This document shows positions 44,363-60,485 of a stretch of 64,000 bases of DNA, piece after piece. The notes below the pieces were generated by a model, which was not told the origin of the DNA, did no database searches, and was given only the letters and a program-made list of their open reading frames with translations. The stretch covers positions 11,998-75,997 of the forward strand of contig JAEZTB010000059.1 in NCBI GenBank assembly GCA_023443745.1. Reading direction: 5' to 3'. The position numbers were made by a program, and so were the translations under genes. Origin of the DNA: Bacillota bacterium (lineage in GTDB: Bacteria; Bacillota; Clostridia; DSM-8532). Every line of letters begins with the position of its first letter. Position 1 is the first letter of the stretch.

Positions 44363-44363
44363 A

Positions 44364-45276: not shown

Positions 45277-45305
45277 ATTATAGAGAGAGCTTTCCGATTT
45301 GTCAA
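45277..45305 (-). promoter_or_regulatory. Consensus sigma-A promoter for the nagB-like/ABC operon (TTGACA-17-TATAAT)
   Basis: Minus strand reads TTGACA aatcggaaagctctctc TATAAT with an exact 17-nt spacer. Confidence 0.65.
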
Positions 45306-45317
45306 CGAAATCGACAA
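45295..45317. promoter_or_regulatory. Overlapping inverted repeats (cgattt-N7-aaatcg; ttgtc-N9-gacaa) over the -35 box
   Basis: Seen directly. Shares the AAATCG half-site with 45177-45190. Confidence 0.35.
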
Positions 45318-45453
45318 TTTTTTTTCAGATTTTTCTGAGAATTTTGTGCTTTTTTTTATTGACTCTATCCAATTTTATTTCTTAAATGAATTCCATTTTT
45401 CTGTTTCAGAATTTTGTTTCTATTATTTTACTGCTTTTTTACTATACTTTTAC

Positions 45454-45482
45454 TTGAATTTCCCATCGGTTTCCAATATAAT
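45454..45482 (+). promoter_or_regulatory. Sigma-A-type promoter for the second LacI gene (TTGAAT-17-TATAAT)
   Basis: TTGAAT at 45454-45459, TATAAT at 45477-45482. Puts the transcription start at about 45489, which favours the ATG at 45518. Confidence 0.55.
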
Positions 45483-45517
45483 ATGACAGTATGAATCAAT
45501 TTAACAGAAGGTGTTTT

Positions 45518-46594
45518 ATGTCCAAGCCGAAGCCGAAAAATAAAGTTGTCATCAGCGATGTGGCCAAAGCGGCTCATTGTTCTGTGGCCACTGTTTCCCG
45601 TGTATTAAGCAACAGTGAGTATCCGGTAAGCGATGCGCTCAGGCAGCGCATTATGTCAGTCGCCGATGAATTGGGATATATGCCCAATCCCTATGGCAGA
45701 ATTTTACGGACCTCCATCAATCCGTCCATCGGTATCATTATTCCTTCCTTCCAGAATCCTTTTTTCAGTCAGATCGTAATGGGTATCGAGCATATCGCGA
45801 GCAAACGTAATTATATGTCCATGGTATTTGCCTCCCAGCGTGATCCCGCACTGGAGCGCAAATATATAAGTGATTTGATCCAAAAACGGATTAGCTGTCT
45901 GATGCTCTGTTCCGTTGACGACAATTCTGATACGCTGGAACAATATATTGCTGCCGGCGGATTGGCCTGTGTTTTTGAATCGGACTTTCCTCCCCTGAGC
46001 AATGCGCTCAGTGCAACGGCCGATATGTTTAAAGCGGCGCAAATGGCGGCTGAGCACTTAATTTCACAGGGGCACACCAAAATTGCTTTTTTGACACCCC
46101 CCCTGAGTAGGTCATCCCGTTACCAGCGTGTTGATGGCTGTAAATTCGCTATGGCGATGCACGGACTTTCATTTGAACGTCAGGACATCATTTCCGTTCC
46201 ATATGAGGACGATGTGGACGATGGGCTGTACGAATACAGCATCGGAATGGTATTGGCCAAGAAAATGCTTGAGCAGGAAAAAAAATATACCGCTGTTATT
46301 GCTTTGAACGATTTGATCGCATGCGGCGTCATAGCAGGGCTGAAGCAGCAAAATATTCGCGTCCCCGAGGATATTTCCGTTATTGGCTTCGACGATATTC
46401 CCAATGCCTTTATGATTAGCCCGCAGCTAACTACCATACGCCTTTCGGGTCATTTGATCGGGCAAAGGGCAACACAGCTGGTCATTAATTCCTTTGAATC
46501 CCATGAAAGCATTAATAATGTGACTCTGTCGGTAACACCCGAGCTTATCGTCCGTGAGTCCGTTCGCAATATACAGCATGAGAAGGAGACTTAA
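45518..46594 (+). CDS. LacI-family transcriptional regulator
   Basis: HTH VVISDVAKAAHCSVATVSRVLSN. ATG at 45518 lies 4 nt after GAAGGTG; the ORF-track start at 45491 would be essentially leaderless. Confidence 0.85.
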   Translation: MSKPKPKNKVVISDVAKAAHCSVATVSRVLSNSEYPVSDALRQRIMSVADELGYMPNPYGRILRTSINPSIGIIIPSFQNPFFSQIVMGIEHIASKRNYMSMVFASQRDPALERKYISDLIQKRISCLMLCSVDDNSDTLEQYIAAGGLACVFESDFPPLSNALSATADMFKAAQMAAEHLISQGHTKIAFLTPPLSRSSRYQRVDGCKFAMAMHGLSFERQDIISVPYEDDVDDGLYEYSIGMVLAKKMLEQEKKYTAVIALNDLIACGVIAGLKQQNIRVPEDISVIGFDDIPNAFMISPQLTTIRLSGHLIGQRATQLVINSFESHESINNVTLSVTPELIVRESVRNIQHEKET

Positions 46595-46596
46595 CC

Positions 46597-47889
46597 ATGA
46601 ACAAAGCTGAGCTTCAGGCTTTGCTGTCATTCTATCAAAAGGAGCTTAAGGAAAACATCCTCTTCTTTTGGCTTCCCCGTTGTGTAGACTCCAAAAACGG
46701 GGGCTTTTTCAATTGTTTTGATAATTCGGGGCGAACCCTCGTCAGTTCTGACAAGTACACCTGGTCACAGGGGCGGTTTGTCTGGATATGGACAAAACTC
46801 GCGGCTATGCAGGGCGGTACCTTTTCCAGCAATGAAAAGGCACTGTTTCTTCAATATGCAAAGCAGGGCCGGGACTTTCTTTTCCGTCACTGTCTGATTG
46901 GCAGAGACGATTGGCGGTGCGTTTTTCTCATGGATGCAAAAGGAAATCCGAAATATGTTAACGCCGTTGATGTTCTGGATTCCAGCATTTTTGCGGATTG
47001 CTTTGTCACCGCCGGATTTGCTTTGTCTTCTGCGGTTACAGGAGATGCCGAATCATGGGATTTCGCCAAAAATTTGTATACTTCTATTTGCGGCCGTATT
47101 CAGCAGAATACCTTCAATTCGCTTCCGTATCCTCTTGGAGAAGGCTACCGCATGCACAGCATTCCCATGATCGCCACCAATCTTTCCTGTGAAATGTACC
47201 GCGCTGCACAAATTATGGAGCCCGGCTCATGTCCGGAATATGCAGCTGATATTCATCGGTTCAGTTCCGATATACTGAATCATTTCGTCGACAGCAAGAA
47301 TATACTGCATGAGATTATCTCCAAGGATAATACTTTTGCAGACGGTCTTTTGGGAGATCACATCAATCCGGGCCATACCCTTGAAGACATGTGGTTCCAG
47401 CTGGATGCCGCAGATATTTTGGAAGAACCGCAGCGTTTAGATAAAATCAGCAAAATTGCAAAAAATGCATTCGAGCTTGGATGGGATGCCGTCCATGGTG
47501 GATACTTACATTTTACAGATTCAAACGGCGGCGAAATTCTGGGGCGTTTTGAAGACGATCCCTGTAAGGAACCTCAGCTGCGCCAGGTCTATGACGATTG
47601 GGACAGCAAATTATGGTGGGTCCACTCCGAAGCGCTCTATACATCCCTTTTATTGTATTTCCGAACGAATGATCCGCAATTTCTTTCATATTATTCCCGG
47701 GCTGCCGCTTACGTATTTCAGACGTTCCCCAGTAAAGACCCTTCCATAAGAGAATGGGAACAGATCCGTACCAGGGACGGAAAGCCTCTGGAAAAAGTAG
47801 TGGCGCTTCCGGTGAAGGATCCCTATCATATTATTCGTAATTTCATCCTCATTATCGAATTATTGGAGCAAGAGCTGGCCCGCGCTTAA
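46597..47889 (+). CDS. N-acylglucosamine 2-epimerase (AGE) superfamily (alpha/alpha)6-barrel isomerase/epimerase
   Basis: DSKNGGFFNCFD, KYTWSQGRFVWIW, INPGHTLEDMWF and WWVHSEALY motifs typical of AGE, cellobiose-epimerase and aldose-ketose isomerase family members. Confidence 0.8.
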   Translation: MNKAELQALLSFYQKELKENILFFWLPRCVDSKNGGFFNCFDNSGRTLVSSDKYTWSQGRFVWIWTKLAAMQGGTFSSNEKALFLQYAKQGRDFLFRHCLIGRDDWRCVFLMDAKGNPKYVNAVDVLDSSIFADCFVTAGFALSSAVTGDAESWDFAKNLYTSICGRIQQNTFNSLPYPLGEGYRMHSIPMIATNLSCEMYRAAQIMEPGSCPEYAADIHRFSSDILNHFVDSKNILHEIISKDNTFADGLLGDHINPGHTLEDMWFQLDAADILEEPQRLDKISKIAKNAFELGWDAVHGGYLHFTDSNGGEILGRFEDDPCKEPQLRQVYDDWDSKLWWVHSEALYTSLLLYFRTNDPQFLSYYSRAAAYVFQTFPSKDPSIREWEQIRTRDGKPLEKVVALPVKDPYHIIRNFILIIELLEQELARA

Positions 47890-47925: not shown

Positions 47926-48561
47926 TTATAAGTGCCTTAAAGACCGAAAACTCCCCAACAGGTGAACCAAGTCATTCCCACTCCTGACACCCAGCTTTTT
48001 AAATATTTTTGTCTTTTGATTAGCTATGGTCTTATCTGAAGACAAAAGCCTGATATCCTTTCCGAGAATCATTTCCAGAACGGTTTTTTCTGCGACAGAC
48101 AGTTCGCTCAGGATGAGCGCTTTGATGAAATCCTCCTGGGGGGTACTCCCCCAGGCAGTTGCTCTTAAGGTTTCAGGGATCAGCTCGAATTGGCTTTTGA
48201 AGATATATCCTGAGGCGAAGGATTTCTTGCTGGCCTCAATGGATACCTGAGGATCTTCAATAGCCGTCAGCAGGATGACCTTTGCATGGGACGCCAGTCG
48301 TATTTCCTTGGCTGCTTCGATGCCTCCGAGTTCCTTTCCGGGCACCAGGTTCAAATCCATTAAAACGATATGCGGATTTACATGTCGCGACATCTCAATA
48401 GCATCATTTCTGTTATCGGTAGACCCCACAAGAATAAAATCCTGTTCCCGTTCCAGGAGAGCGTTGATCAGAAACCTAAAATCAGGGTCATCTTCGACTG
48501 ACATTACTCTTATCTTTTTTTGAATTGAGCTATTCATACTGCGCACCTGCAGCCCTTTCAT
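47926..48561 (-). CDS. NarL/LuxR-family response regulator
   Basis: REC (VEDDPD...IVLMDLNL...KVILLT) plus C-terminal LuxR HTH (LSVAEKTVLEMIL...TIANQKTKIFKKLGV). 4-bp overlap with the kinase gene. Confidence 0.85.
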   Translation of the reverse strand: MKGLQVRSMNSSIQKKIRVMSVEDDPDFRFLINALLEREQDFILVGSTDNRNDAIEMSRHVNPHIVLMDLNLVPGKELGGIEAAKEIRLASHAKVILLTAIEDPQVSIEASKKSFASGYIFKSQFELIPETLRATAWGSTPQEDFIKALILSELSVAEKTVLEMILGKDIRLLSSDKTIANQKTKIFKKLGVRSGNDLVHLLGSFRSLRHL

Positions 48562-49997
48562 TTACATTGGCAGGTCCGTTCCTCCTGTGACAAGGGAACA
48601 GATTCTGAATATGTAATACGCTTTAACGGAATATGAAGAAAAAACGTGGTCCCTTCATCCGAGCTGCTTTTTACGTCTATATAACCGTTATGTTTTTTTA
48701 TCACATTCATACAGTAAGAAAGCCCCAGACCAAAGTTACTATCTGTTTTCTTTGTTGTGAAATACGGCTCAAACAGGCGGTCCATTACTTCCTTCCTGAT
48801 CCCAGGTCCGCTGTCATGAACCGCAATACAGTAATAGGGTCTTTTCTTTTCTCGATAACATTTAATGTCGATGGCTCCTTCAGTCCTTACGGCATCGGAG
48901 GCATTTTGAATCAGATTATTCAGCACCTCAACGAGATGTGTCCTATCACAGTAAATATCAGGCTCATCCTTGCAATCCACCTCTATGGTGACGGACTTGC
49001 TTATGTTATTCCTGTTGAGCTGAACAGCCTGTGTGAGGATATCCTTCATAAACCATTGATGCTCGTTTAATAGAACTGTTCCTGAATAAAGGCATGCTTT
49101 TTGATTAAAATTTTGAAGATGCGCAACGGATCTCGTTATGATGTCTATCTCCTCAGGGACAGGAAGGCCCCCCTGTTGATATTTGCTCTGCAGATTTTCC
49201 AGGCACCATCCTATTTTAGCTGTTTCATTTTTAAGCAGATGCCCCGTGAATTGGGCATTTTTATTGATCAGAAGCATATCGGAATTCCAGCGGTAGTTTT
49301 CACTTCTGAGGCGCAGTCCCATGATACCTTCTCTGAAAGCCATCACAATGTAAAAAAGAATGGCTAAGAACAGTATATAGGTGTTTCCTTTCCACAGCTT
49401 GAACAGCTCCCTGATACCAAGGCTGTGAATGACAAAGGTCGTAATCAGACAAAACCATACAGCCGGTAAAAGAAGCATGGCCACAAGTCTTTTTTGTTTT
49501 CGTGCCTGAGCATTATTCTCCCGGAAAATAGAGGTCAGCATTAAATAGGTATAAAAAATACCAAACCCTACATTATAGACCGAGAATGCGATCCAGAATA
49601 CTCTGTCATTATGCTGATACCATGGCATTTTCAATGGGCTGTAAATAAGCACAAGCACAAGGGAAGGCAGAAATATGCCCAGCTTCAGCCATTTAAAATT
49701 TGCCGGATACCTTTTGTCAAAACCACAGAAGTAGAATATAAACAACAGACCTGTGGGCAAAGCCATGTGATAGACGATAGCAGTCATAGCGGAATAAATT
49801 TGTGTATACACTTCATAACTTATGCCCGATTCAAACTGCTTTTGAAGGAGCGGAACCAGATCATCATAATAATACTCTTTAAGGGTGCCAAGGCTGCAAA
49901 TAACCGCATTAATGGCGCACCATCTGTTTGCTTTATTTTTAGGACTCGACAGATAGATCAACATGGCCAGAACCCAAATAAAGATTGTGAAAATCAT
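48558..49997 (-). CDS. Multi-pass (about 6-7 TM) sensor histidine kinase
   Basis: H-box-like FTGHLLKNETAKI. HATPase motifs LNNLIQNASDAV, DSGPGI, GLGLSY. ATG at 49997; the ORF-track TTG is at 50012. Confidence 0.8.
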   Translation of the reverse strand: MIFTIFIWVLAMLIYLSSPKNKANRWCAINAVICSLGTLKEYYYDDLVPLLQKQFESGISYEVYTQIYSAMTAIVYHMALPTGLLFIFYFCGFDKRYPANFKWLKLGIFLPSLVLVLIYSPLKMPWYQHNDRVFWIAFSVYNVGFGIFYTYLMLTSIFRENNAQARKQKRLVAMLLLPAVWFCLITTFVIHSLGIRELFKLWKGNTYILFLAILFYIVMAFREGIMGLRLRSENYRWNSDMLLINKNAQFTGHLLKNETAKIGWCLENLQSKYQQGGLPVPEEIDIITRSVAHLQNFNQKACLYSGTVLLNEHQWFMKDILTQAVQLNRNNISKSVTIEVDCKDEPDIYCDRTHLVEVLNNLIQNASDAVRTEGAIDIKCYREKKRPYYCIAVHDSGPGIRKEVMDRLFEPYFTTKKTDSNFGLGLSYCMNVIKKHNGYIDVKSSSDEGTTFFLHIPLKRITYSESVPLSQEERTCQCK

Positions 49998-50087
49998 ATC
50001 CGATGACCTCAAAAAGGTATTTATTCTTCTATTTTGCAGTTTTTTCGTTTCTATGTAAATGATAAAAATAAATATTTGTCAAATATT

Positions 50088-51653
50088 TCACCAATTAATC
50101 CGAAACTGCATGGAACCAATGGAAATCACATCTGATTTTTCCAATCTGTATTCCTGACTGATGGGTACACCGTTCACATATGTTCCATTGGTAGAGTTCA
50201 AATCTGCTATATAAAGCTTATTGGAGGAAAATCTCAGAGAGCAGTGGGCGGCTGAAAGCTTTTTATCCTCCTGGAACGCCAATCCAGCCTTTTGAGTGCT
50301 TCTTCCGATGATGATTGAGCCATAGATATCCACCATATAAACCTGATTATTCACCATGTCCATTTTTGTGAGAACCACTGTCACATCCGGTTCCTGGGGT
50401 TCCGGTGCAACCTGCTCAGTACCAGGATTCGTAAGAGGTGCAGGCTCGGATACTGATTTATCCATAACTGCTGAAGTATTTGAGTCTTCTGCCTGCAAAG
50501 CTGCTTCCGGTTGTTCAGGCAGTGAGACAGCGGTTTGCTTTTTCCCTTTCCTGCGTCTGGCTATTAAAATTGCTGATACCACCACCAAAACCAGAATTCC
50601 TAATACTGCAGCGACAATAATAAGGGTGAGTTCTCCCGGATCATCCTCTGTACCGGATGCATTATCCGGACTATCTGTCGTTTCTTGAGTAGGGGAAGGT
50701 GGTGTTGCTTCTTTTTTTACGCCCAACCCGTTGGTCGGAATGGTATAGCTGTCACTTGCTTTTCCATGATCGGGTATAATGATGTCCAGCTTGAGAACTT
50801 GCTCATTTCCGTCCGAATGATAATTTGAAAGGTCTGCTTTTATAACATAACTGTTTTCTATTGATGTTTGTATTTTTAAAGCGAGGTCTAAAGCAATCGT
50901 TTGGTCCAGTCCATAAACAAGATCGAGCCCTCCCGGAGACCTGCGTGCAAGGCTTCCCAGGGTTTTTGAAGCCTCTACCTTTCTAGCTGACGGTTTATTC
51001 TCCATCATAGCCACAGTGAAGATGGGAATATGGCATTTATCAATTTTCCTGTATACTTCATCGAGGGTTATGCCCGTTGTGTAGTCGTCTTCACCGTCGG
51101 ATAATATCACAAGGCATTTTTTAGGGTAGGCCTTATCACTTGACAGCAAAACATCCAAGCCCTTGACTATACCGGTATATAGGTTGGTATCCTCTTTAGA
51201 TTTCCTGCTTATGGAATCAATCTGTGCCTCATACTCTTCCTTAGTTGAAACAAAAGGATTTGAGTAGGCCTCATTTCCTACTGAAAAAATACTGATATTA
51301 TCCTTATCGCTTGTTTTATGTACAATCTGTGTCAATATCTCCTTTACTTCACTGAGCTTTTTATCGCTCATGGAACCGGATACATCCACTAAAAAGAGAT
51401 ATGAAGCACCTTCCTGTGATTCAGCAAGACGATTCATTTCGCTGATAGCGATAGACGCATTGCCAAGAGAAAGCTTAAGCTCATCCTTGTTGACGTCTCT
51501 TTCCAGGTTTGTATTGAAAAAAACATTCAGGGTGCCATTATCTGCAATATAGCCTTCCAAATTGATAGTCAGCGCATCAATGGCACAGACCGGCAAAAGA
51601 ATGGTCATTGAACAAATCATCATCAAGAGGAATAAACCCTTTAAAGCTTTCAC
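50088..51653 (-). CDS. Signal peptide, extracytoplasmic vWA domain, TM segment and cytoplasmic FHA domain
   Basis: MIDAS LVDVSGSMSD...SDGEDD. TM LTLIIVAAVLGILVLVVVSAILIARRRKGKK. FHA IIIGRS...SAAHCSL...DLNSTNGTYVNG. Confidence 0.85.
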   Translation of the reverse strand: MKALKGLFLLMMICSMTILLPVCAIDALTINLEGYIADNGTLNVFFNTNLERDVNKDELKLSLGNASIAISEMNRLAESQEGASYLFLVDVSGSMSDKKLSEVKEILTQIVHKTSDKDNISIFSVGNEAYSNPFVSTKEEYEAQIDSISRKSKEDTNLYTGIVKGLDVLLSSDKAYPKKCLVILSDGEDDYTTGITLDEVYRKIDKCHIPIFTVAMMENKPSARKVEASKTLGSLARRSPGGLDLVYGLDQTIALDLALKIQTSIENSYVIKADLSNYHSDGNEQVLKLDIIIPDHGKASDSYTIPTNGLGVKKEATPPSPTQETTDSPDNASGTEDDPGELTLIIVAAVLGILVLVVVSAILIARRRKGKKQTAVSLPEQPEAALQAEDSNTSAVMDKSVSEPAPLTNPGTEQVAPEPQEPDVTVVLTKMDMVNNQVYMVDIYGSIIIGRSTQKAGLAFQEDKKLSAAHCSLRFSSNKLYIADLNSTNGTYVNGVPISQEYRLEKSDVISIGSMQFRINW

Positions 51654-51657
51654 ACTA

Positions 51658-52407
51658 TCACTCCTTTATGGTGATTTCATCGGATGGATTTATGACGAAT
51701 ACTGCAAGGGCAGTAAAATTATCGTTTTTTCCGTTCACTCGCTTACTAAGCCGCCCAACCATATATTTGAGCCATTCATCAGGTGTATGAGATTTTGCAA
51801 GATCGATTTCCATTTCATCCTCAAGTACATACTCCCAGAAACCATCGGTACATAATAAAAAGGTTTCAAACGCTCTTAGTCTTCCCTCTGCTTTCTGGAT
51901 ATCGGGTTTTATGGCCAAATCGTTTCCCAGAGCCCGCAGAACTTTGTTCCTGTCCTCATGGAATCTTATTTTTTCCGGAGGGATCTCACCGGAGAGCACA
52001 GCCATCTGTGAAACACTGTGATCCTTTGTCTGAAAGGTTCTTTTTCCCTCTGTAAAGCGGTAAAGCCTGGAATCCCCTATGTGACCGTAAATCATGGATT
52101 CCTGATTGCAAAATAGTGCTACTGCAGTACTTTTCATTTTCAATGAGGCGATTTGCCTGTTTAAGACTTGCTGGTTAGCCTTTTCAAATAATTGAAAGAT
52201 ATGATCGGGTTGGATATCCGGGTTACTCATAAATCCGTCGACAAGCGTGTCAACTGCAACCTTCGAGGCAATATCGCCGCCGCCATGTCCCCCCAGACCG
52301 TCTGCAACAACGCCTACCATCACTGGGCCGCTCATTTCAAAGCGGGCACAGTCCTCATTATAACTGCGGCCACCCATTTGACTGACTCTGGCAATTTTAT
52401 AAATCAT
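51658..52407 (-). CDS. PP2C-family Ser/Thr phosphatase (cytoplasmic)
   Basis: RSYNEDC, VVADGLGGHGGGDIAS, CTDGFWE, DNFTALAV. Confidence 0.9.
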   Translation of the reverse strand: MIYKIARVSQMGGRSYNEDCARFEMSGPVMVGVVADGLGGHGGGDIASKVAVDTLVDGFMSNPDIQPDHIFQLFEKANQQVLNRQIASLKMKSTAVALFCNQESMIYGHIGDSRLYRFTEGKRTFQTKDHSVSQMAVLSGEIPPEKIRFHEDRNKVLRALGNDLAIKPDIQKAEGRLRAFETFLLCTDGFWEYVLEDEMEIDLAKSHTPDEWLKYMVGRLSKRVNGKNDNFTALAVFVINPSDEITIKE

Positions 52408-52435
52408 GCTCTTTAACTCCTTTTTCGTATACGCC

Positions 52436-54313
52436 TTATGAAACCTTTATCACGAATGTGTTGTTTTCTCCTATTGTAAAGCAGTCTCCTTCATGCAAGG
52501 CCACACTTTGCTCAGATGTTAGCTTTCCCCTACCCGATACAAAAGTGCCGTTTGAAGATCCCAGATCCTTTATGCAAACAGCACGGGCCGCCTTATCCAG
52601 TAAAAGCTCGCAATGAACTCGGCTAACCCCTCGTGTATCATCGGAAAAGATGATGTGACAGTGATCAGGGCTTCGGCCAAGCACCACCTTTTTTTCTGAT
52701 AAGGGGAAAAAGACATTCTCATAATACCCGGAGAGTCCTACGATTCCCAAAGCAGAGGGATTGGGCGTATTATTGCGTACATTACTCTGCGGCTGGTCCA
52801 GGGCAGGGTTATTCCGGGAGAGTCCCTCCTGAGGTTTGTTCACGCTGTGGGCTGCTGCTGTTACGCAGGTTTTGGCAATCAAATCGTGCCCCGCATTTCT
52901 TTCTTTGTTCATAAAGCATACAACAGCATTTCCGATACCAATGATGCCACCCAATTCCATTGACACAAAAGCGCTGAACAGGGTATTGGAATATTTTGCT
53001 GCATTTCTGAGTAAGGCTTTTCCAAAAGTCAAAGGCTGGCTTGCATTATCAAAAACAACTAAGCCCATGATGCGCTTACCAAGAGTAGCCTGAAGTTTTG
53101 ATGACTCACAGCCGGTTCCATAAGCCACACTTAGTAAATAAAGTGCCAAGTAAAGGTCTCCCATAGTATCCGGCTCAAGCAGATTAATGAGTACGCCGTA
53201 GAATAATGCCGCGAGGATAAGCCCGTCAATGATGAGCGCAGCAAAACGTCGTCCAATATCAGCTTGTGCAGTGGTTGATGCGGCCGCCTGCATAGAAGCT
53301 ACAGGCCTTTCTTCTCTCGGTGACGTACTTGACAAAGCGGGTAAAGCTCCCGTCAAGGCCGCTTTAAAGGCACTCATAGACTGAAACCGGTCTTCGGATT
53401 TTACGGAAAGTGCTTTTACAATAGCCTTATCCATATGCTGAGGCAAATCACGGCAAAGGACCGATGGGGGGATGAGCTCATCCTTAAACATCCTCTGAGT
53501 GGCTTCCGGCGGTATGGTGCCAGTGATGCTGAAATAAAGCGTTCCAGCCAATGCATACACATCGGTAAACGGTCCCTGCTTACCATGGCTGCGGTATTGT
53601 TCCTCGGGAGCATATCCTCTTTTTAATATGATGGACAGACTCTGGCTCTTTCCCTTGAGTGCGACCCTTGCAGCACCGAAATCCAGGAGCTTGACTTTAC
53701 CGTTTTTGCAAACATAGATATTATCCGGGCTTATATCGCGGTGAATCACATTCTGACCATGTATTTGATCCAATGCGTCAAATATCGGAAGGAGCAGGCT
53801 GATGGTCTCCGACCAGGGAAGCTTTCCGCCCTTCTGCGAAATATACTTTTTTAAATCACAGCCATCCAGATATTCCATCACATAATAAGCTGTGCGATTT
53901 TCTTCGAACAGGGCCCTTACGGAAATGATATGGGGATTGTCCTGGTAAACATGGATCATACGCGCTTCTTCAAGAAACTTTTTCAATCCGTACTCATAAT
54001 CGTCTCGACTCGTATGAATGGTCATCTCCGTGGTACCGGGGATCCTTGTTGACAGACCGTCAGGCATGAATTCCTTAATGGCGACACGTTCATTGGCCTT
54101 TAGGTCATAGGCCATATAAGTTATTCCGAAGCCGCCATGGCCCAAAACCGCCCCGACCAGATACCTACCATGCAGAATGGTAGAAAGCGGCAGGGCAAAC
54201 ACAGGCTCCTGAGCAGAACCGGTTGTTGACCGGCAATTCGTACATTGGCCATCAATTACGCTTTCATGCATGCATTTCAGGCATAGCTTGTTAAAATCCA
54301 AAAGTTTCACCAC
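52436..54313 (-). CDS. Zn-ribbon, Hanks Ser/Thr kinase, RDD membrane module and FHA domain
   Basis: CLKC...CTNC; GHGGFGITY, VAIKEF, HRDISPDN, DFGAAR, YAPEEQ; RDD (RRFAALIIDGLILAALFYG...HDLIAKT); FHA VVLGRS...SRVHCEL...DLGSSNGTFVSG. Confidence 0.9.
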   Translation of the reverse strand: MVKLLDFNKLCLKCMHESVIDGQCTNCRSTTGSAQEPVFALPLSTILHGRYLVGAVLGHGGFGITYMAYDLKANERVAIKEFMPDGLSTRIPGTTEMTIHTSRDDYEYGLKKFLEEARMIHVYQDNPHIISVRALFEENRTAYYVMEYLDGCDLKKYISQKGGKLPWSETISLLLPIFDALDQIHGQNVIHRDISPDNIYVCKNGKVKLLDFGAARVALKGKSQSLSIILKRGYAPEEQYRSHGKQGPFTDVYALAGTLYFSITGTIPPEATQRMFKDELIPPSVLCRDLPQHMDKAIVKALSVKSEDRFQSMSAFKAALTGALPALSSTSPREERPVASMQAAASTTAQADIGRRFAALIIDGLILAALFYGVLINLLEPDTMGDLYLALYLLSVAYGTGCESSKLQATLGKRIMGLVVFDNASQPLTFGKALLRNAAKYSNTLFSAFVSMELGGIIGIGNAVVCFMNKERNAGHDLIAKTCVTAAAHSVNKPQEGLSRNNPALDQPQSNVRNNTPNPSALGIVGLSGYYENVFFPLSEKKVVLGRSPDHCHIIFSDDTRGVSRVHCELLLDKAARAVCIKDLGSSNGTFVSGRGKLTSEQSVALHEGDCFTIGENNTFVIKVS

Positions 54314-54319
54314 CGGAAA

Positions 54320-55600
54320 TTATTGATATTTGATCTCAAACAAAGCAGCCTGACGGCTCCCTAAATAAAACTGCTGGCCGCTTTCAAGCTTAACCGGCGT
54401 TCCCGGAGTCAGTCGATCGTTTGATCCTAAAAATGTTCCATAGGAAGAGCTCTCATCACATAGCCACAGAGCACCGCCTTCAATTTTGAGGCTGCAATGT
54501 TGTCTGCTTATGCCTTTGGTGGATTGAGGAAAAATGATATTGGCCAGCTTCGTATCACGGCCGAAAACAATTTTCCCGTTGTTTAGCGGGAAGGTCTTAC
54601 CCGCATATTCACCCGTCAAGCCAAAGAGCACAGGCTTGCCGTTCCGAGGGAAATCAGGCTGTGCCGCTACACCTTCTGAAATCAGCACAATCTGGCGAAT
54701 GCCTTTATTGATGAGGACTAACAATGTAAACCATGCGATAGCAATAAGAATGTAGCTCATTAAGCTTCCAAATACACCAAAGTCAATAAGGACGATGCCT
54801 GAATTCCAAACATAATGAAGAGCAATGGCTACTGCCAGATACTTTAAAAAGTCTAGGCTGATGAAATGTCTTCCCTCAAGCTTACCGCTGCCTTTTACCA
54901 TGGCAAGGGCCCCACCTGTAAGTGCTGCCCAAGCAACATGCATTCCCGGAGCCAAAATTCCCCTAAGGATAATGGTGTCAATTGAATTGTAGACAAATGC
55001 ATATCCTGCCGATTCTATGGCTGCAAAGCCTGCTCCAACCGCCCCCCCTATGAGGATACCATTCAATATGTATTTATTTTTGCTGCCCTTGTTAAGAAAT
55101 AAAGCCAGAGCTGCAACCTTCGCCGGTTCCTCTGAAAACGGGGCAAAGGTAGCCGGGCCGTTAGGCACAATAACCCCGAAAAGAACAGTAAAAAGTATGG
55201 ACATGACGCCGCCCAGAAGAAACATTTTGATGACATCATAAAAGGGAATATTTCTGGGGATGTTCAATTCCCAAAAGAAAATAAGCACTGCCAGAGGTGT
55301 GGCAAAGGAGCCTACTATGATGAACATGGGTACTATTTTGTCTCCGATAAACAGCAATGCGATATAAAACAACAGAGTAAGCAGAAGTCCTACTGCCAGA
55401 ACCCTGAAAAACAGCCAGGGTTTTTTCCACTCGGATAGCATCTCGCTTTCTTTTGGAGTACTGAGCTCCGTTCCCGCTATAAAAAATCGCTCGCCATCCT
55501 GCTTGCTGTGGGGCTTGAATACGTCTGAGAACACATCGTTCAGCTTTAAGCCTGAATTCAGGCTCTTTTTAAAAAATACCGTATTACCACTGGATTTCAT
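54320..55600 (-). CDS. PrsW-like intramembrane protease module with C-terminal FHA domain
   Basis: Polytopic membrane body with the FSEEPAKV (EExxK) and LHYVWN motifs. FHA IVFGRD...SRQHCSL...SSSYGTFLGS. Confidence 0.8.
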   Translation of the reverse strand: MKSSGNTVFFKKSLNSGLKLNDVFSDVFKPHSKQDGERFFIAGTELSTPKESEMLSEWKKPWLFFRVLAVGLLLTLLFYIALLFIGDKIVPMFIIVGSFATPLAVLIFFWELNIPRNIPFYDVIKMFLLGGVMSILFTVLFGVIVPNGPATFAPFSEEPAKVAALALFLNKGSKNKYILNGILIGGAVGAGFAAIESAGYAFVYNSIDTIILRGILAPGMHVAWAALTGGALAMVKGSGKLEGRHFISLDFLKYLAVAIALHYVWNSGIVLIDFGVFGSLMSYILIAIAWFTLLVLINKGIRQIVLISEGVAAQPDFPRNGKPVLFGLTGEYAGKTFPLNNGKIVFGRDTKLANIIFPQSTKGISRQHCSLKIEGGALWLCDESSSYGTFLGSNDRLTPGTPVKLESGQQFYLGSRQAALFEIKYQ

Positions 55601-55626
55601 AGAAACCTCCGTTATGGGACCTGTTA

Positions 55627-56907
55627 CTATAGTACCTTAAACATATTTTTCATATTGGCCAGATAAAAGCTTTCACCGCTGTGAAGCGTATAGGGTTGAT
55701 GCGGTACCAGCCGGGTTCCGTTCTGAAGAAATGTGCCATAGCTGGACTGTTTATCCGTCAATATCAACGCTCTATCTTCAGCTTTAAGCTCACAATGGAG
55801 GGAGCTTATTCCCGGGGTATCCTTTGGAAAAACAATCTGGCATTTGGACGGATCTCTTCCCATGGCGACACTTTCCCGGACCTTAAAAGTATTATTCTGA
55901 AAAAAACCTGCCGTACAGAGTATTTGAGGTTCTGAAATGACCCTGGAATTTGTGGGTGTTATTACAGCTTGGCTGCCACCGGCTGAAGACTTCTTCCTTG
56001 ACTTAAGGTAAAAACCCACCAGCGAGGCAATTCCGGTTATTCCGGCTATCACAAAAATGTTTATATCATCATTGGCCTCAGTTTGCGTACCCGGCCCAGG
56101 GTTGCTGGGTTCTGGATTACCAGAAGGCTCATCCGGCGACTGGGCGCCTGAAGAATCCCCGGCTTTTTCATAGGGAAAATCATTTTCATCAAGAAAAGCG
56201 GTGACATAATCGATGTAAATCGAATAATTGACACCAGCCTTTTCTTCACCCTCTAAAACCGCGCCAAATGTGTTGATTCCCAAAACTGCACCATCCTGCC
56301 GGACAAGAGGGCCTCCCGAATTACCATGATGGATGGTGGCGTCTATCTGATAGCATTCATTACCGTCTATTTTAGTATTGAGCTTGCTGATTACACCTTT
56401 GGTAACCGTAACATCACTGATTTCGGAAGGATAGGCATAGCCATCGTCAGTTATGCTGTCGGCCGCTCCAGGAAAGCCTAATGCATAAATCTCTTCTGCT
56501 ATGCTGACCTGGCCGGATGGGCACAAAGTCAATGGGATCCGATCGGATACGGGGGTCTCCGTAACCAGTATGGCTAGATCGGGAGATGACCAGGACTGGA
56601 CCACCTTGGCTTTTACCAGGGTTCCGTCTATCTGACCATTCTCCAGAACAATAAAATGATCCAGGACAAGGTAGACATTTTCTTCGAACCCATCAACCAC
56701 ATGATTGTTAGTAATGAAAACAGATGGAGCCTCTCCCTTTTTCCCTACTGCAAAGCCTGATCCGCTGGAGATGTATTGCGAGGTGAATCCCACAACACGC
56801 ACCACACCGTTAACCGTAGTTTCTATGGCTGAATCGGCAATACTTATGGTTCTCCCAAAGAAGAACAGGCAGCCTATCAATAAAATGCACAGTAATCTGT
56901 TTTTCAT
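55627..56907 (-). CDS. Signal peptide, trypsin-like (S1, Trypsin_2) serine protease, TM segment and cytoplasmic FHA domain
   Basis: ATG at 56907 lies 7 nt after GGGAGG and gives MKNRLLCILLIGCLFFFG. Triad contexts TNNHVV, SPDLAIL, GNSGGPL. TM IFVIAGITGIASLVGFYLKSRKK. FHA VAMGRD...SSLHCEL...SSYGTFLQN. Confidence 0.85.
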   Translation of the reverse strand: MKNRLLCILLIGCLFFFGRTISIADSAIETTVNGVVRVVGFTSQYISSGSGFAVGKKGEAPSVFITNNHVVDGFEENVYLVLDHFIVLENGQIDGTLVKAKVVQSWSSPDLAILVTETPVSDRIPLTLCPSGQVSIAEEIYALGFPGAADSITDDGYAYPSEISDVTVTKGVISKLNTKIDGNECYQIDATIHHGNSGGPLVRQDGAVLGINTFGAVLEGEEKAGVNYSIYIDYVTAFLDENDFPYEKAGDSSGAQSPDEPSGNPEPSNPGPGTQTEANDDINIFVIAGITGIASLVGFYLKSRKKSSAGGSQAVITPTNSRVISEPQILCTAGFFQNNTFKVRESVAMGRDPSKCQIVFPKDTPGISSLHCELKAEDRALILTDKQSSYGTFLQNGTRLVPHQPYTLHSGESFYLANMKNMFKVL

Positions 56908-56959
56908 GAAGTTACCTCCCGGAGCTGGCTTTGTAACTGGGGGGACATTTAGATTCTCG

Positions 56960-58012
56960 TTATAGGAGCTCAATGATAATTACCGTAAAATTATCCTGAC
57001 CGTTCCTGTTTTTCTGCAGAATAAGCTTTTCCAGCTCTCCGGTGGCCCTATGGGGATCAAGCTTCATGGTGGATAGAATCTCCTCATCGGATAATGTTCC
57101 AAAAACACCATCGGACATCAACAGAATGCGGTCACCCGGAACAAGCTGCAGCGGACGAACACTACGATCAATTTCTTCAATATCACCCATGCCGATGTAA
57201 CTGGTCAGAGCATTTCTTTGAGGGTCATTCCGGGCTTTTTCAAAGGAGATTTCTCCCATGGCTGCCTTTTGGTCTAATTCAGAAGCATAGGTATGCTCCT
57301 TGTTGATTTGAAGCAACGCGCCGTTTCTCACAAGACAAATGCGGCTGTCCCCAACAGAAATCCATTGGAGCATCATGTCCTTTACATTGACTGCTACTAC
57401 CGTGGAACCACTTTTATCCTTGCAGTTTCTTAAATAGGAATTGACTTCCCTATTGGTAAAGGAAAGCATGCTTAAAAGCTCCTGGGATGCGTCAGAACCA
57501 AAGGGTTTCGTGCTGAACTGTCCCAGCATGGTGCGGGTTACCAGAGCGCTCACTTCCGCGCCATTGGCCAAACCACCCATACCATCCGCTACAATGGCAA
57601 GCAGGCCTTTTTCCTGGCAAAGGGCTTTGTTGGATAAATCAGAAATTCCGAAGGAGTCCTGCTGACTCTCCCGCTTTCCGATATTCTGTACATTGCCGAT
57701 ATGTAAGATGCCCTTCGGTTCGGAATTCATGGGGTCAACTCCCGGTCCTTGAATTTTTGTTTTTCTTTTTTTACGCCTGAGTAACAGGTAAAAGCCCAAT
57801 GCCGCCAATAAGATCAATAAAAGCAGGATTATCCCTGTCAACAACGGATATTTTGTCAGCGTTTCCAATATAGGATTTTCTCCTGAAATCGCAGACGGGC
57901 TGATGTTGGACGGATCAGCGGTTACAGCGGGTTGAATGGGCTCAATTGTTACAGCGGGCTCAGTGGCGATTGCCGGCCCACTGGTTCCTACGAAATTATT
58001 CACTCCAATCAA
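56960..58012 (-). CDS. Membrane-anchored PP2C-family Ser/Thr phosphatase
   Basis: TM LLTGIILLLLILLAALGFYLLLRRKKRK, then RESQQDS, IVADGMGGLANGAEVS, MSDGVFG, DNFTVIII. Start uncertain: TTG at 58012 or GTG at 58003. Overlaps the upstream FHA gene. Confidence 0.8.
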   Translation of the reverse strand: MIGVNNFVGTSGPAIATEPAVTIEPIQPAVTADPSNISPSAISGENPILETLTKYPLLTGIILLLLILLAALGFYLLLRRKKRKTKIQGPGVDPMNSEPKGILHIGNVQNIGKRESQQDSFGISDLSNKALCQEKGLLAIVADGMGGLANGAEVSALVTRTMLGQFSTKPFGSDASQELLSMLSFTNREVNSYLRNCKDKSGSTVVAVNVKDMMLQWISVGDSRICLVRNGALLQINKEHTYASELDQKAAMGEISFEKARNDPQRNALTSYIGMGDIEEIDRSVRPLQLVPGDRILLMSDGVFGTLSDEEILSTMKLDPHRATGELEKLILQKNRNGQDNFTVIIIELL

Positions 58013-58592
58013 ACCTCTCTCCGCAAAGCGGTACGAATATGAGCTTTGTTTCCCCTAATTCAATGACATCGTAAGGTGCTATTTCTGTAGTGTTGAACAG
58101 CGCCTTGCCATTGAAGCGTACAATGCTTCTTCCATCGCCTGGCCTGAAATAGAATATTTTATCCTTGGCATCGAAGCTTATAAAAGCATGATTTTCCCGT
58201 GAAATGGTATTATCGCCATGGATGCATATGTCCATGGTTTCACTCCGGCCTATGGCATTATTGTCCGAATGAATGCGGTAATCCCTGCCCTTGTCGGTTC
58301 CTGCTACACAAACTAGCCACCCCACCACAGGGTCAATACCAGTTTTATGCTTGATGAGAGCTACTGTGCGTTCCCTATCTGCTGAAGCCCCTTTATTGGG
58401 TGTTGCCATGGAATAGGTGTGTCCGGATGAGCCCGAGTCCACAGACTCAGCTCCGCGGGAAACCGGCATGGTTGGGCCGACCTCCAGGGGGCGTGTCATG
58501 TTCACATTGGCTGATGAACTGTTGCAATTAGGGCATTCCGAGAATTTGGACGCATCATAAAAATGACCGTTGCTGCATTGTTTCATTTCCAT
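57996..58592 (-). CDS. Zn-ribbon plus FHA-domain protein (soluble)
   Basis: RBS AAGGAGG 8 nt upstream. CSNGHF...CPNC. FHA VGWLVCVAG...AIGRS...SRENHAFISF. Confidence 0.85.
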   Translation of the reverse strand: MEMKQCSNGHFYDASKFSECPNCNSSSANVNMTRPLEVGPTMPVSRGAESVDSGSSGHTYSMATPNKGASADRERTVALIKHKTGIDPVVGWLVCVAGTDKGRDYRIHSDNNAIGRSETMDICIHGDNTISRENHAFISFDAKDKIFYFRPGDGRSIVRFNGKALFNTTEIAPYDVIELGETKLIFVPLCGERFDWSE

Positions 58593-58612
58593 AAGAATAT
58601 CCTCCTTGAGAT

Positions 58613-59149
58613 TCAGGTGGTTTTATAGATAGATGAATGGTTAAAACCATTATTCTTTTTGTTGCTTTGCCTGTAAAAAAGCATGGTGATGACTGTGATA
58701 AACAGGGCACCTCGTGCAAGAGTCCAACATGTGGAAAAAGAATGTAAGGTGGAGGAATCCCATTGACCAATCCCTAATTTGTTATAGGCCCAAAGCTGAA
58801 TCGGCCTGTTAAGAATACCGTGGACAGCACTCAGCAAGGATACTATTTTAATGCTTAATGGAGTAGTTTTTAAGCTTATCAATGCTAAAGCGAATCCAAT
58901 CCAATCAATATACCATAAAAACTCAGTAATATTGCTTAAGGGTGAATTGAAATAGTTCATTCTTTGTTGCTCAGATAAAAGGATCATATCAATTGTGATC
59001 TTCATAAACGACCCTATCAAAGAAAGAAGCATAAAATATTTGGCAGCATTCCATTTCTTGATATGTAAGAAAAATGCAAAAAAGAAGACTAGCATTCCCA
59101 CTGATGTTCCAATATTAAGTAAAAATGCTAATATATAATTCGTTTCCAT
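58613..59149 (-). CDS. Hypothetical polytopic (about 5 TM) membrane protein
   Basis: 178-aa ORF with hydrophobic helices and no recognisable motif. Packed between the FHA and kinase genes. Confidence 0.6.
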   Translation of the reverse strand: METNYILAFLLNIGTSVGMLVFFFAFFLHIKKWNAAKYFMLLSLIGSFMKITIDMILLSEQQRMNYFNSPLSNITEFLWYIDWIGFALALISLKTTPLSIKIVSLLSAVHGILNRPIQLWAYNKLGIGQWDSSTLHSFSTCWTLARGALFITVITMLFYRQSNKKNNGFNHSSIYKTT

Positions 59150-59180
59150 ATCATTTACTTATCCTTTCCGTAGCTCTTTA

Positions 59181-60374
59181 TTATACATTAAAAGTGTTTA
59201 ACCAGATTAAGAGCTCAACGGCTGCAGATGCAATAGCCAAAATAAAAAAGAATTTTGGAATAGTGGGTATTGATTCATCCGCTCCCCTTGAAAGTCCTTC
59301 AGAGACCATTTCTGTCTTTACTACATCATTTTTTTCAGGTCCAGCCTTCACTGGTTCAGAATCTTTATCAGCCGTATCCTTTAGAAAATCGGAAGCTATC
59401 AGTGCTTCGTAGAGCTCGCTCATGCTCTGGTAACGATTCTTCTGCAAAACAGCGAGCCCTTTGAGAAGAGCCGCTTCCTTTTCCGCATTGATGCTCACTC
59501 CCAATTTTGTAGGAGGTTCAAGGGTATCCTCATGGACTCTTTCCATGGATTCAGGAGGAGTCTGGCCTGTGATGGCCTTATAGATGGTGGCACACAGAGC
59601 ATACACATCGGTCCACGGTCCCTGGCTCCCGCGTGTGCGGTATTGCTCCTCCGGGGCATATCCTGGCTTCAAAAGTACCGATAGACTCTTCCCTCCGTCA
59701 GTGGATATATCTCGGGCAGCTCCGAAATCCAGCAGCTTGATATCACCATTGCGTGTAATCATGATATTGTCCGGGCTGATATCCCGATGGATGATTCCTC
59801 TCTCATGCATCTCGGACAGGGATTTAATTAACGGCTTCACCCACTCCAGCACCTGATAAACCGGCAACCTTCCGCCCTCTTTTTGCAGATACTGCTTTAA
59901 GGTGATACCCTCGATATATTCCATAACAATATAGCCCGTTCCGTTTTCCTTAAAGAAATCCTTGACCGATACAACACCGGGAAGGGCATAGAATTTGGCA
60001 AGGCTCTTGGCTTCACCGACAAATTTATCCAGGCCGTTGAGATAGGCCTCCCTCCTGTCACCCGAAAAAGGGGTGACGGTTGTTGTGGTCGTGTTTTCAC
60101 GGGTGACAAAACCAGCGGGATAGTATTCTTTGATAGCTACCTTCATGTCCAGGTTCAAGTCCCAGCCCAGATAGGTGATGCCAAATCCGCCCTCTCCCAA
60201 AACACATCCGATCAAATACTTGCCATTGAGAATAGTCTCGGGCGGAAGCTGGTGAGGAGACAGCTTTTCTTCATCAGCATGCTGCCATCCGCAATGCGGG
60301 CAGGGATGTTCCTTGCTGTTGATTTCAGACATACAGCCCATACAGAGCCGATCGACCTCAGTTTGACCTTTCAT
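59181..60374 (-). CDS. Zn-ribbon plus Hanks Ser/Thr kinase with a single C-terminal TM anchor
   Basis: ATG at 60374 lies 6 nt after AGGGGGA and gives MKGQTEVDRLCMGCM, co-linear with the paralogue. GEGGFGITY, VAIKEY, HRDISPDN, DFGAAR. C-terminal FFFILAIASAAVELLIWL. Confidence 0.85.
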   Translation of the reverse strand: MKGQTEVDRLCMGCMSEINSKEHPCPHCGWQHADEEKLSPHQLPPETILNGKYLIGCVLGEGGFGITYLGWDLNLDMKVAIKEYYPAGFVTRENTTTTTVTPFSGDRREAYLNGLDKFVGEAKSLAKFYALPGVVSVKDFFKENGTGYIVMEYIEGITLKQYLQKEGGRLPVYQVLEWVKPLIKSLSEMHERGIIHRDISPDNIMITRNGDIKLLDFGAARDISTDGGKSLSVLLKPGYAPEEQYRTRGSQGPWTDVYALCATIYKAITGQTPPESMERVHEDTLEPPTKLGVSINAEKEAALLKGLAVLQKNRYQSMSELYEALIASDFLKDTADKDSEPVKAGPEKNDVVKTEMVSEGLSRGADESIPTIPKFFFILAIASAAVELLIWLNTFNV

Positions 60375-60485
60375 CCGTGATCCCCCTGGATAATGATTAA
60401 TTTTCAGTTTCATTATAAATTACATCGTTCTATTTGTGTTCCTATAGATTATAGGAATGCATAAAGAAGCATCTTCTATCAGTTA

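Follow-up and report, generated by a model that had tools for sequence, protein, structure and literature searches.

We analysed a 64,000-nucleotide (nt) stretch of DNA from a Bacillota bacterium of the Clostridia (assembly GCA_023443745.1, contig JAEZTB010000059.1; the whole stretch is called the window below, and positions refer to it), in which four different membrane proteins each end in an FHA domain. These are a vWA protein with one transmembrane segment (TM; vWA-TM-FHA), a protein kinase with an RDD module (kinase-RDD-FHA), a PrsW-type protease (PrsW-FHA) and a trypsin-like protease (trypsin-TM-FHA). We lean slightly towards reading them as the spokes of a conserved, modular envelope system of Hanks-type kinases, PP2C phosphatases and FHA domains, with a proposed mechanism of docking on phosphothreonine. 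The same architectures co-occur in dozens of genomes, and the set of FHA tails is therefore far beyond chance. The conserved motifs of the linker in a small zinc-ribbon/FHA protein of the same gene array (ZnR-FHA) favour this linker as the best candidate for a shared docking hub; the kinases rank second.

A preliminary description of the window had listed the four membrane proteins with their FHA ends. All four open reading frames (ORFs) are present (Table 1), and their tails match the Pfam FHA model with E-values of 4e-16 to 5e-11 and scores of 43–60 bits, against a cut-off of 20.7 bits. The fifth FHA protein of the window, ZnR-FHA, scores 20.7 bits, exactly the Pfam cut-off. The Gly-Arg pair of the beta3-4 loop and the Ser-x-x-His motif of the beta4-5 loop are invariant across the five window domains, and both are kept at ~100% in each architecture class among 256 FHA segments, 251 of them from related loci; for the vWA tails the counts are 41/41 for G, 38/41 for R, 40/41 for S, 40/41 for H and 39/41 for the Asn of the N-G motif. 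The tail in an AlphaFold2 (AF2) model of PrsW-FHA superposes on solved FHA domains (TMt 0.85, root-mean-square deviation (rmsd) 1.6–1.8 Å), the structural matches including the FHA-phosphopeptide complex of DgcB (TMt 0.85, rmsd 1.6 Å) and the FHA domain of ArnA. On this sequence evidence the tails are confirmed as genuine FHA domains that retain a predicted phosphothreonine pocket.

The idea that one and the same reader is reused on all modules did not hold. Of the window tails, those of the vWA and kinase-RDD proteins have the N-G Asn of the beta6-7 loop, whereas those of the PrsW and trypsin proteins have Tyr instead (S-S-Y-G-T). Family-wide, this position is N in 39/41 vWA tails, Y in 20/30 PrsW tails and Y in 19/32 trypsin tails, and Tyr is also common in RDD tails. 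The PrsW, trypsin and RDD tails match one another with 75–106 bits (40–50% identity), compared with ~48 bits against the vWA tail. By these scores the tails form at least two subfamilies that differ at the N-G residue, a vWA type in which Asn is kept and a PrsW/trypsin/RDD type that often carries Tyr, and the change from Asn to Tyr may be a specificity switch. The context II/VFP..T.GIS..HC.L, which had been pointed out for three tails, was indeed found: the RDD, PrsW and trypsin tails have it, and the vWA tail does not.

Hydropathy and charge bias put the vWA and trypsin tails in the cytoplasm, as had been proposed. Both proteins have a signal-like segment, an ectodomain, one TM (amino acids (aa) 344-362 in the vWA protein and 304-322 in the trypsin protein) and a K/R-rich C-terminal flank, in which the basic stop-transfer sequences RRRKGKK and KSRKK, respectively, follow the TM. 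This layout recurs in 112/118 trypsin-FHA homologues, with a mean K+R of 0.96 before the TM and 4.29 after it, and in 25/36 vWA-FHA homologues, with means of 1.48 and 4.36. The AF2 model of PrsW-FHA, obtained from a 54-sequence alignment with a predicted local distance difference test (pLDDT) score of 89, contains eight membrane helices by our count, in which the 50-residue helix 63-112 is taken as two; a short low-confidence linker and a beta-sandwich follow. Because the number of helices is eight, both termini would lie on one side, and since the N-terminus has no signal peptide and carries a zinc ribbon in some homologues, this side is predicted to be the cytoplasm. Hence, the vWA, trypsin and PrsW tails are all placed in the cytoplasm by hydropathy and charge bias, for PrsW together with the AF2 model.

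For kinase-RDD-FHA, three hydrophobic segments were detected in the RDD module. In 15 homologues, K+R was 2.5 in the N-terminal flank, 0.33 in the first loop, 6.4 in the second loop and 2.9 after the third segment (D+E 2.0), a pattern compatible with a re-entrant third segment and with a true span alike. For the region spanning RDD and FHA, AF2 with only three input sequences gave a model with a pLDDT of 41. A cytoplasmic tail is favoured, not proven, by the fully conserved pocket and by the subfamily that this tail shares with the PrsW and trypsin tails. A cytoplasmic position is thus predicted for the tails of three of the proteins, whereas the three segments and the charge pattern do not settle the side for the kinase-RDD protein.

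The outward and intramembrane modules look active, with their catalytic and binding sites kept. The protease domain of trypsin-TM-FHA scores 85.8 bits against Trypsin_2 (cut-off 27.6), and its His-Asp-Ser triad is kept in 120-121/121 homologues; no PDZ domain was found in the protein, and its scores against the equivalog models of HtrA, DegS and MarP are all far under cut-off. The PrsW module scores 70.3 bits against PrsW-protease (cut-off 23.5), and E-E-x-x-K and the two His residues are kept in 65/65 homologues. An equivalog of Bacillus subtilis PrsW was ruled out (NCBIfam NF033739, 27.3 bits against a cut-off of 225), and by its scores the window PrsW is a paralogous subfamily distinct from the RsiW site-1 protease. 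The vWA domain scores 54.3 bits against VWA (cut-off 23.8), and in its metal-ion-dependent adhesion site (MIDAS) the D-x-S-x-S motif is kept in 43/43 homologues, the T in 37/43 and the final D in 43/43. The RDD module scores 69.1 bits (cut-off 24.1), with a helix-1 Arg/Asp stretch (GRRFAALIIDG) that is conserved among homologues, and the VAIK, HRD and DFG motifs are readable in all three kinases of the window.

The protein that ties the recurrent clusters together is ZnR-FHA, the sole protein common to all of their versions. It consists of a C-x3-H...C-P-x-C ribbon, a variable linker, a divergent FHA domain and a C-terminal PLCGExFxW motif, and it is 50% identical between the window genome and Clostridium fungisolvens. 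A scan of the ZnR-FHA alignment against one genome per species yielded 80 loci (L006-L085) in 80 genomes of about ten phyla, with a patchy distribution and about 45% identity. The carriers belong to Clostridia, Bacilli, Synergistota, Desulfobacterota, Methylococcaceae, a betaproteobacterium, Ignavibacteria, Acidobacteriota, Rhodothermales, Fusobacteriaceae and Chloroflexi, so that both monoderm and diderm phyla are represented. The family comprises 3590 clusters at 50% identity (E<=1e-10), and the search returned no ZnR-FHA relatives in phages.

The loci were annotated using the window's own domains only, and 45 of them were well flanked, with about 10 kb on both sides. In these 45, a kinase was present in 45, a PP2C in 44 and two PP2C genes in 31 (the second one small), together with vWA in 30, trypsin-FHA in 19, PrsW-FHA in 16 and RDD-FHA in 9. 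All but one of the 45 encode one or more membrane proteins with an FHA tail (44/45), and 11/45 encode four. Pfam further recognised FHA tails on Rv1747-like ABC transporters, an M48 peptidase, trypsin and vWA modules of divergent sequence, and modules of 3-6 TMs without an assigned family. The gene directly after ZnR-FHA encodes a PP2C in 35 loci, and the two genes overlap in 33. No description of the cluster, its ZnR-FHA marker or the repeated use of FHA tails turned up in the literature searched, although the 2012 Ter-system paper defining TerY-P may mention it. PrsW-FHA and PrsW-zinc-ribbon fusions have been listed as predicted signalling peptidases (Zhang et al, 2012, PMC3482391), but that work names the fusion only, without the conserved cluster, the other FHA spokes or the ZnR-FHA partner.

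Two further replicons carry related arrangements. In Azospirillum lipoferum 4B (AZO_p4, 532492-549201; L087), a cluster with the order FHA, FHA, PP2C, PP2C, trypsin-like, DUF805 and kinase lies on a chromid between a site-specific integrase and an ISL3 transposase, and these mobile-element flanks hint at horizontal transfer. On a plasmid of Leisingera caerulea (NZ_CP081079.1, 82376-90345; L086), the same FHA type is found at the C-terminus of a 452-aa protein encoded between a kinase and a PP2C; two dynamin-family genes follow, which gives this locus a different, membrane-remodelling context.

The individual fusions are old. Searches at E<=1e-5 gave 444 matches for PrsW-FHA and 817 for trypsin-TM-FHA, nearly always with the FHA tail present, in Lachnospiraceae, Oscillospiraceae, Christensenellales, Clostridium and one Bacillus. 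Kinase-RDD-FHA orthologues were found in 8/80 scanned loci and in one additional locus (L001), and a homologue search with the RDD-FHA fragment gave 6 weak matches only. The gene order of L001 equals that of the window, whose nearest relatives are metagenome-assembled genomes with the prefix 'OH_'. A reduced set was present in Lacrimispora sp. NSJ-141 / Lientehia hominis NSJ-141 (L002; kinase-DUF5050, ZnR-FHA, PP2C, PrsW-FHA, PP2C), and C. fungisolvens has the order FHA199, PP2C, trypsin-FHA, PP2C, vWA-FHA, kinase-RDD-FHA, RDD-FHA, kinase. When all tails were compared with one another, the best match of a tail outside its own genome shared its architecture in 34/41 cases for vWA, 27/30 for PrsW, 27/32 for trypsin, 10/10 for kinase-RDD and 86/86 for ZnR-FHA. 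The preliminary description had explained the similarity of the tails by domain shuffling within the cluster; the tails group by architecture and not by genome, and each fusion is an old widespread family, which contradicts this explanation. Their relationships indicate that the PrsW, trypsin and RDD modules exchanged one type of tail long ago, with no recent local shuffling. PrsW-FHA was also seen in another neighbourhood on two metagenome contigs of Anaerobutyricum hallii (L003 and L004), in which no ZnR-FHA gene was detected; its neighbours there are a 382-aa protein with signal peptide, TM and FHA domain, several DUF6273 kinases, M48 peptidases, Zn_ribbon proteins of ~410 aa and a TraG/VirD4-like ATPase.

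As for the partner on which the tails may dock, threonine is strikingly conserved in the linker of ZnR-FHA, which is otherwise gappy: in 70 sequences, T76 is present in 70/70 and T41 in 65/70, and T33 and T59 are frequent. Most of these residues have Pro at +2 and V/L/I at +3, T33, T41 and T59 lying in T-x-P-hydrophobic motifs. Phosphothreonine followed by a hydrophobic residue at +3 (pT-x-x-hydrophobic) is a common type of FHA ligand. The linkers contain 77 matches to T.P[VLIMF], compared with 7.4 ± 2.6 in composition-preserving shuffles, and 177 matches to T..[VLI], compared with 73.8 ± 7.4, with S..[VLI] being depleted, all at a significance that is overstated by the use of related sequences in the shuffle tests. 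In the juxtamembrane segments of the kinases, T.P[VLIMF] showed a weak excess (20 vs 7.5 ± 2.5) and T..[VLI] none (61 vs 63.8). The tails' own linkers were not enriched, and T..[VLI] was lower than in shuffled sequences for PrsW (6 vs 9.5), trypsin (6 vs 10.8) and kinase-RDD (3 vs 11.2). The best solved relatives of the ZnR-FHA profile are GarA and OdhI (E 1.5e-6), with an alignment that spans linker and FHA domain; GarA and OdhI are FHA proteins with an N-terminal phospho-acceptor segment. Of the shared docking partner proposed in the preliminary description, a common phospho-dependent docking logic stands as the natural reading, whereas the partner named there, the kinases or their juxtamembrane segments, fits less well with motifs that are weakly enriched in those segments and strongly enriched in the ZnR-FHA linker. 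Because the conserved T-x-P-hydrophobic motifs are so strongly enriched in it, the ZnR-FHA linker, or both it and the kinases, is the likelier hub.

Besides the relatedness of the shuffled sequences, several points weigh against a system of spokes around this hub. A naive count of the three RDD segments would put the FHA tail of the kinase-RDD protein outside the cell, and the two tail subfamilies may not all recognise the same site. The number of linker motifs correlates with the number of tails with a rho of 0.51, which falls to 0.39 after clustering at 70% and to 0.16, not significant, after clustering at 55%; this correlation is largely phylogenetic. The conserved threonines of the linker could be structural, or be phosphorylated to another end, for instance in a GarA-like self-binding switch within ZnR-FHA. 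Finally, no interaction, phosphosite or phenotype was found in the literature for any member of the cluster.

If the spoke-and-hub reading holds, an extracellular cue would activate the receptor kinases, which would phosphorylate the T-x-P-hydrophobic and T-V-A sites of the ZnR-FHA linker and possibly their own juxtamembrane segments. The cytoplasmic FHA tails would dock on these phosphothreonines, and docking would gather the envelope proteases and the vWA protein at the signalling complex or release them from it, thereby switching extracytoplasmic or intramembrane proteolysis and ligand binding; the two PP2Cs would erase the phospho-marks. Proteases of the PrsW, HtrA/DegS/MarP-like and M48 families start envelope-stress proteolytic cascades elsewhere. 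Since the proteases of the cluster belong to these families, its most likely role, by analogy, would be a phospho-gated envelope-stress or surface-remodelling response. We further suggest, tentatively and with an expectation well short of even, that ZnR-FHA and its translationally coupled PP2C form an undescribed, horizontally spread hub-and-spoke system, in which the multi-phosphothreonine linker acts as a programmable docking rail for a variable set of FHA-tailed envelope enzymes, drawn from S1, PrsW and M48 proteases, the adhesin-like vWA protein, RDD modules and ABC transporters. Such a rail would amount to a eukaryote-style phospho-scaffold that controls proteolysis beyond the cytoplasm, possibly in a surface defence or envelope-stress response.

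Two alternatives concern the docking partner itself. The tails might dock directly on the autophosphorylated kinases, at the activation loop or the juxtamembrane segment, with ZnR-FHA as a mere substrate or adaptor, and there is precedent for this in KAPP, which docks on plant receptor kinases, and in FhaA and FipA, which dock on PknB. A kinase is encoded in every one of the well-flanked loci, the juxtamembrane segments have the modest T.P[VLIMF] excess given above, two window kinases carry Thr in the activation loop ('DIST' and 'DMST'), and the NCBIfam model of FhaB/FipA matches the TM, linker and FHA domain of the vWA protein (E 2.2e-12, under cut-off). We nevertheless consider direct kinase docking rather unlikely: outside the catalytic domain the cluster kinases are heterogeneous, their juxtamembrane T..[VLI] is at the level of shuffled sequence, the activation loop of kinase-RDD-FHA lacks Thr, and the strongly conserved Thr motifs are located in ZnR-FHA. 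Still less probable, to the point of being very unlikely, is that the tails share no partner and each switches only its own protein, by binding a phosphothreonine in that protein's linker within one molecule or a homo-oligomer, as in GarA/OdhI or Bdellovibrio DgcB. Such a switch is consistent with the structural match to the DgcB FHA domain, which is bound to its own phosphorylated tail, and with the linkers of the vWA tails, which contain ~7% Thr and ~0.9 T..[VLI] per sequence. It fits poorly with the absence of enrichment in the tails' own linkers, the depletion of T..[VLI] in those of PrsW, trypsin and kinase-RDD, and the lack of any conserved Thr in them.

Two others concern what the cluster is for. 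It might be a TerY-P-like conflict or defence system that senses a phage, epibiont or competitor and uses the proteases as effectors, a role compatible with the docking mechanism and, in our estimate, quite unlikely. The vWA-PP2C-kinase order matches the TerY-P triad (PMC10542128), the distribution over phyla is patchy with variable spoke content, the Azospirillum copy adjoins an integrase and a transposase, and the variable beta-propeller sensor ectodomains recall the Esr threat-sensing pathway (PMC13622651). Set against these similarities, PADLOC gave no match for the vWA, PrsW and ZnR-FHA proteins and generic matches for the kinase, PP2C and protease; the vWA domain is predicted to be extracellular, unlike the cytoplasmic TerY; no nuclease, toxin or MoxR was seen among the ORFs scanned at 40-64 kb, where the neighbours are sugar-metabolism genes; and there were no matches in phages. 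We give hardly any credence to the proposal that the cluster regulates a secretion machine encoded elsewhere, either through the threonine-phosphorylation pathway of the type VI secretion system (T6SS) or as a type VII secretion system (T7SS) variant. Kinase, PP2C, FHA and vWA are parts of the T6SS PpkA/PppA/Fha1 pathway, new T7SS variants also contain kinases, phosphatases, FHA proteins and sometimes a vWA protein (PMC11217815), and weak matches to the TagH model were obtained (E about 1e-6, far under cut-off). The system occurs in monoderm as well as diderm phyla, however, and Pfam found no secretion-system family among the genes called in L001, L002 and L005 or among the ORFs at 40-64 kb of the window that were scanned. 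The remaining loci were annotated for the window's own domains only and so have no bearing on secretion linkage.

One of the closest known systems is the mycobacterial PknA/PknB-PstP-FhaA-FhaB(FipA) cluster, which likewise groups the genes for receptor Hanks kinases, a membrane-anchored PP2C and FHA proteins and in which FipA is a TM-linker-FHA protein that resembles the window tails. FHA proteins are recruited to phosphothreonine on kinases and substrates. In contrast to the mycobacterial cluster, the window has no RodA or penicillin-binding protein (PBP) genes, the fusion partners of the FHA domains are proteases, a vWA ectodomain and an RDD kinase, and the ZnR-FHA marker has no mycobacterial equivalent, all NCBIfam scores being far under the equivalog cut-offs. 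An identity of the vWA protein with FhaB/FipA (Rv0019c) was ruled out by a score of 47.3 bits (cut-off 125), even with a match that extends over TM, linker and FHA domain. GarA and OdhI share with ZnR-FHA the form of a small FHA protein with an N-terminal Thr phosphorylated by Hanks kinases, but GarA lacks a zinc ribbon, regulates metabolic enzymes and has a single ETTS site instead of repeated T-x-P-hydrophobic motifs. In ArnA/ArnB of Sulfolobus, a small zinc-finger-FHA protein and a vWA protein act together under the control of kinase and phosphatase (PMC6509490). In that system ArnB is cytoplasmic and is the phosphorylated partner, and there are no protease spokes; in sequence, ZnR-FHA matches ArnA only marginally (E 0.19).

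The T6SS PpkA-PppA-Fha1 pathway likewise combines a kinase, a PP2C, an FHA scaffold and an outward vWA domain in phospho-dependent assembly of a membrane complex. In the window the vWA domain is joined to an FHA tail and not to a kinase, and the system is present in monoderm Clostridia; membership in the T6SS pathway was rejected, with TagH at 27-28 bits against a cut-off of 120 and no T6SS families in the scan of the window ORFs at 40-64 kb. The TerY-P triad consists of vWA, PP2C and kinase (Anantharaman et al, 2012; Gao et al, 2020; summarised in PMC10542128), and the corresponding three gene types are adjacent in the window, in the same order and on the same strand (Table 1). The window vWA protein differs in that it is predicted to be secreted, membrane-anchored and FHA-tailed, its signal peptide and TM placing the vWA domain outside. 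The TerY-P kinase has a C-terminal zinc ribbon or OB fold, whereas the window kinase has its zinc ribbon at the N-terminus and ends in RDD and FHA. Assignment to TerY-P as a known defence system was rejected, the PADLOC matches being generic for kinase, PP2C and protease and missing for the vWA protein. The Esr pathway of Actinomycetales comprises surface beta-propeller sensors, vWA, a kinase/phosphatase pair and a variable FHA output phosphorylated on linker Thr (PMC13622651, 2026 preprint). Esr depends on MoxR and is linked to Esx secretion. The scanned ORFs of the window include no MoxR, a propeller is fused there to a kinase, and FHA domains sit on membrane proteases. By these comparisons the cluster is a widespread, apparently uncharacterised form of Hanks-kinase/FHA signalling that carries the reader on envelope proteases and a vWA protein.

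In the window, all ORFs of at least 170 aa across 47926-63911 lie on the minus strand, with spacings of 4-75 nt or short overlaps (Table 1); since the gaps are short and genes overlap, the array is probably a single operon. A scan of the array for promoters and terminators gave counts no different from those in shuffled sequence. The products of the array are three receptor-type Ser/Thr kinases, two PP2Cs (one in the membrane, one soluble), ZnR-FHA and the four FHA-tailed membrane proteins. The 5' end of the membrane PP2C gene overlaps the 3' end of the ZnR-FHA gene, and its exact start codon is uncertain. The frame of trypsin-TM-FHA is open over 55627-56907/56973; an ATG at 56907 gives a protein of 426 aa, equal to the length called in the near-identical relative L001. 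The soluble PP2C matches the NCBIfam Stp1/IreP-type model at 1.5e-43, under cut-off.

Table 1 Genes of the FHA array and adjoining two-component pair (domain E-values from Pfam)
Feature	Position	Strand	Layout and evidence	FHA domain (nt)
DUF5050 beta-propeller ORF	62664-63911	minus	DUF5050 4.8e-22	
Receptor kinase	60486-62624	minus	Zinc ribbon, Hanks kinase (Pkinase 4.8e-30), TM aa 369-387 (hydropathy), extracellular DUF5050 beta-propeller (6.1e-37)	
Membrane-anchored kinase	59181-60413	minus	Zinc ribbon, Hanks kinase (Pkinase 2e-30), C-terminal TM anchor (aa 388-406), ectodomain nearly nil	
Multi-TM protein, 178 aa	58613-59149	minus	No family match	
ZnR-FHA, 198 aa	57996-58592	minus	Small, cytoplasmic; proposed phospho-hub	58053-58253
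Membrane PP2C	56960-58012	minus	Short N-terminal ectodomain, TM aa 60-78 (hydropathy), RRKKRK, cytoplasmic PP2C (PP2C_2 2.4e-10)	
Trypsin-TM-FHA	55627-56907	minus	Signal peptide, extracellular S1 trypsin/HtrA-like protease (Trypsin_2 6.3e-24), TM, KSRKK, FHA tail (1.6e-12)	55663-55863
PrsW-FHA	54320-55600	minus	PrsW-protease aa 149-287 (2.1e-19), FHA aa 344-414 (5.3e-11)	54359-54571
Kinase-RDD-FHA	52436-54313	minus	N-terminal CxxC...CxxC zinc ribbon, Pkinase aa 53-274 (3.4e-30), RDD aa 351-481 (6.3e-19), FHA aa 543-615 (6.1e-15)	52469-52687
Soluble PP2C, 249 aa	51658-52407	minus	Ser/Thr phosphatase (PP2C_2 2.4e-11)	
vWA-TM-FHA	50088-51653	minus	Signal peptide, extracellular vWA (VWA aa 87-221, 2.5e-14), TM aa 344-362, RRRKGKK, ~60-aa linker, FHA aa 447-513 (4e-16)	50115-50315
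Histidine kinase	48558-50012	minus	Multi-TM; HATPase_c 2.2e-22 (sole Pfam domain recognised); two-component pair adjoining the cluster downstream	
Response regulator	47926-48561	minus	Best NCBIfam matches NarL/UvrY-type, all under cut-off; second member of the pair	

All three kinases start with a CxxC...CxxC zinc ribbon (nt 54230-54283, 60309-60362 and 62532-62585), and a zinc ribbon also opens ZnR-FHA and some PrsW-FHA homologues (Zn_ribbon); it may be a second interaction module common to the system. The 178-aa multi-TM protein had no Pfam, NCBIfam or PADLOC match and is probably an accessory specific to the lineage; its gene was detected in L001, L006 and L008 only, where it lies between those for the kinases and ZnR-FHA. 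These three loci carry two to four extra kinase or kinase-DUF5050 genes upstream, and receptor kinases have therefore expanded in this lineage; the cluster probably extends beyond the end of the window (62664-64000). A histidine kinase adjoins the cluster in 16/80 related loci, nearly always alongside PrsW-FHA in Clostridial clusters, and through the neighbouring histidine kinase and response regulator the cluster may have a transcriptional output, which would link Ser/Thr and two-component signalling. The flanks (40292-47889 and 22459-29135) hold genes for carbohydrate and amino-sugar utilisation in a chromosomal housekeeping context, including an ABC sugar transporter, a LacI regulator, an N-acetylglucosamine (GlcNAc) 2-epimerase, a glucosamine-6-phosphate isomerase and a 1142-aa protein with a sialidase-like carbohydrate-binding module (CBM) and an S9 peptidase domain.

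What is understood of Hanks-kinase signalling in bacteria comes mostly from a small number of soluble FHA adaptors, such as GarA, FhaA and Fha1. The cluster described here is one conserved kit that places a phosphothreonine reader on what is predicted to be the cytoplasmic end of enzymes acting in or outside the membrane, and the ZnR-FHA protein provides a simple marker for locating it. If the docking model is correct, it would offer a route by which cytoplasmic phosphorylation gates extracytoplasmic proteolysis and adhesion, and would supply a working hypothesis for thousands of hypothetical proteins annotated as 'FHA domain-containing' or 'PrsW family', many of them in Lachnospiraceae and Oscillospiraceae of the human gut.

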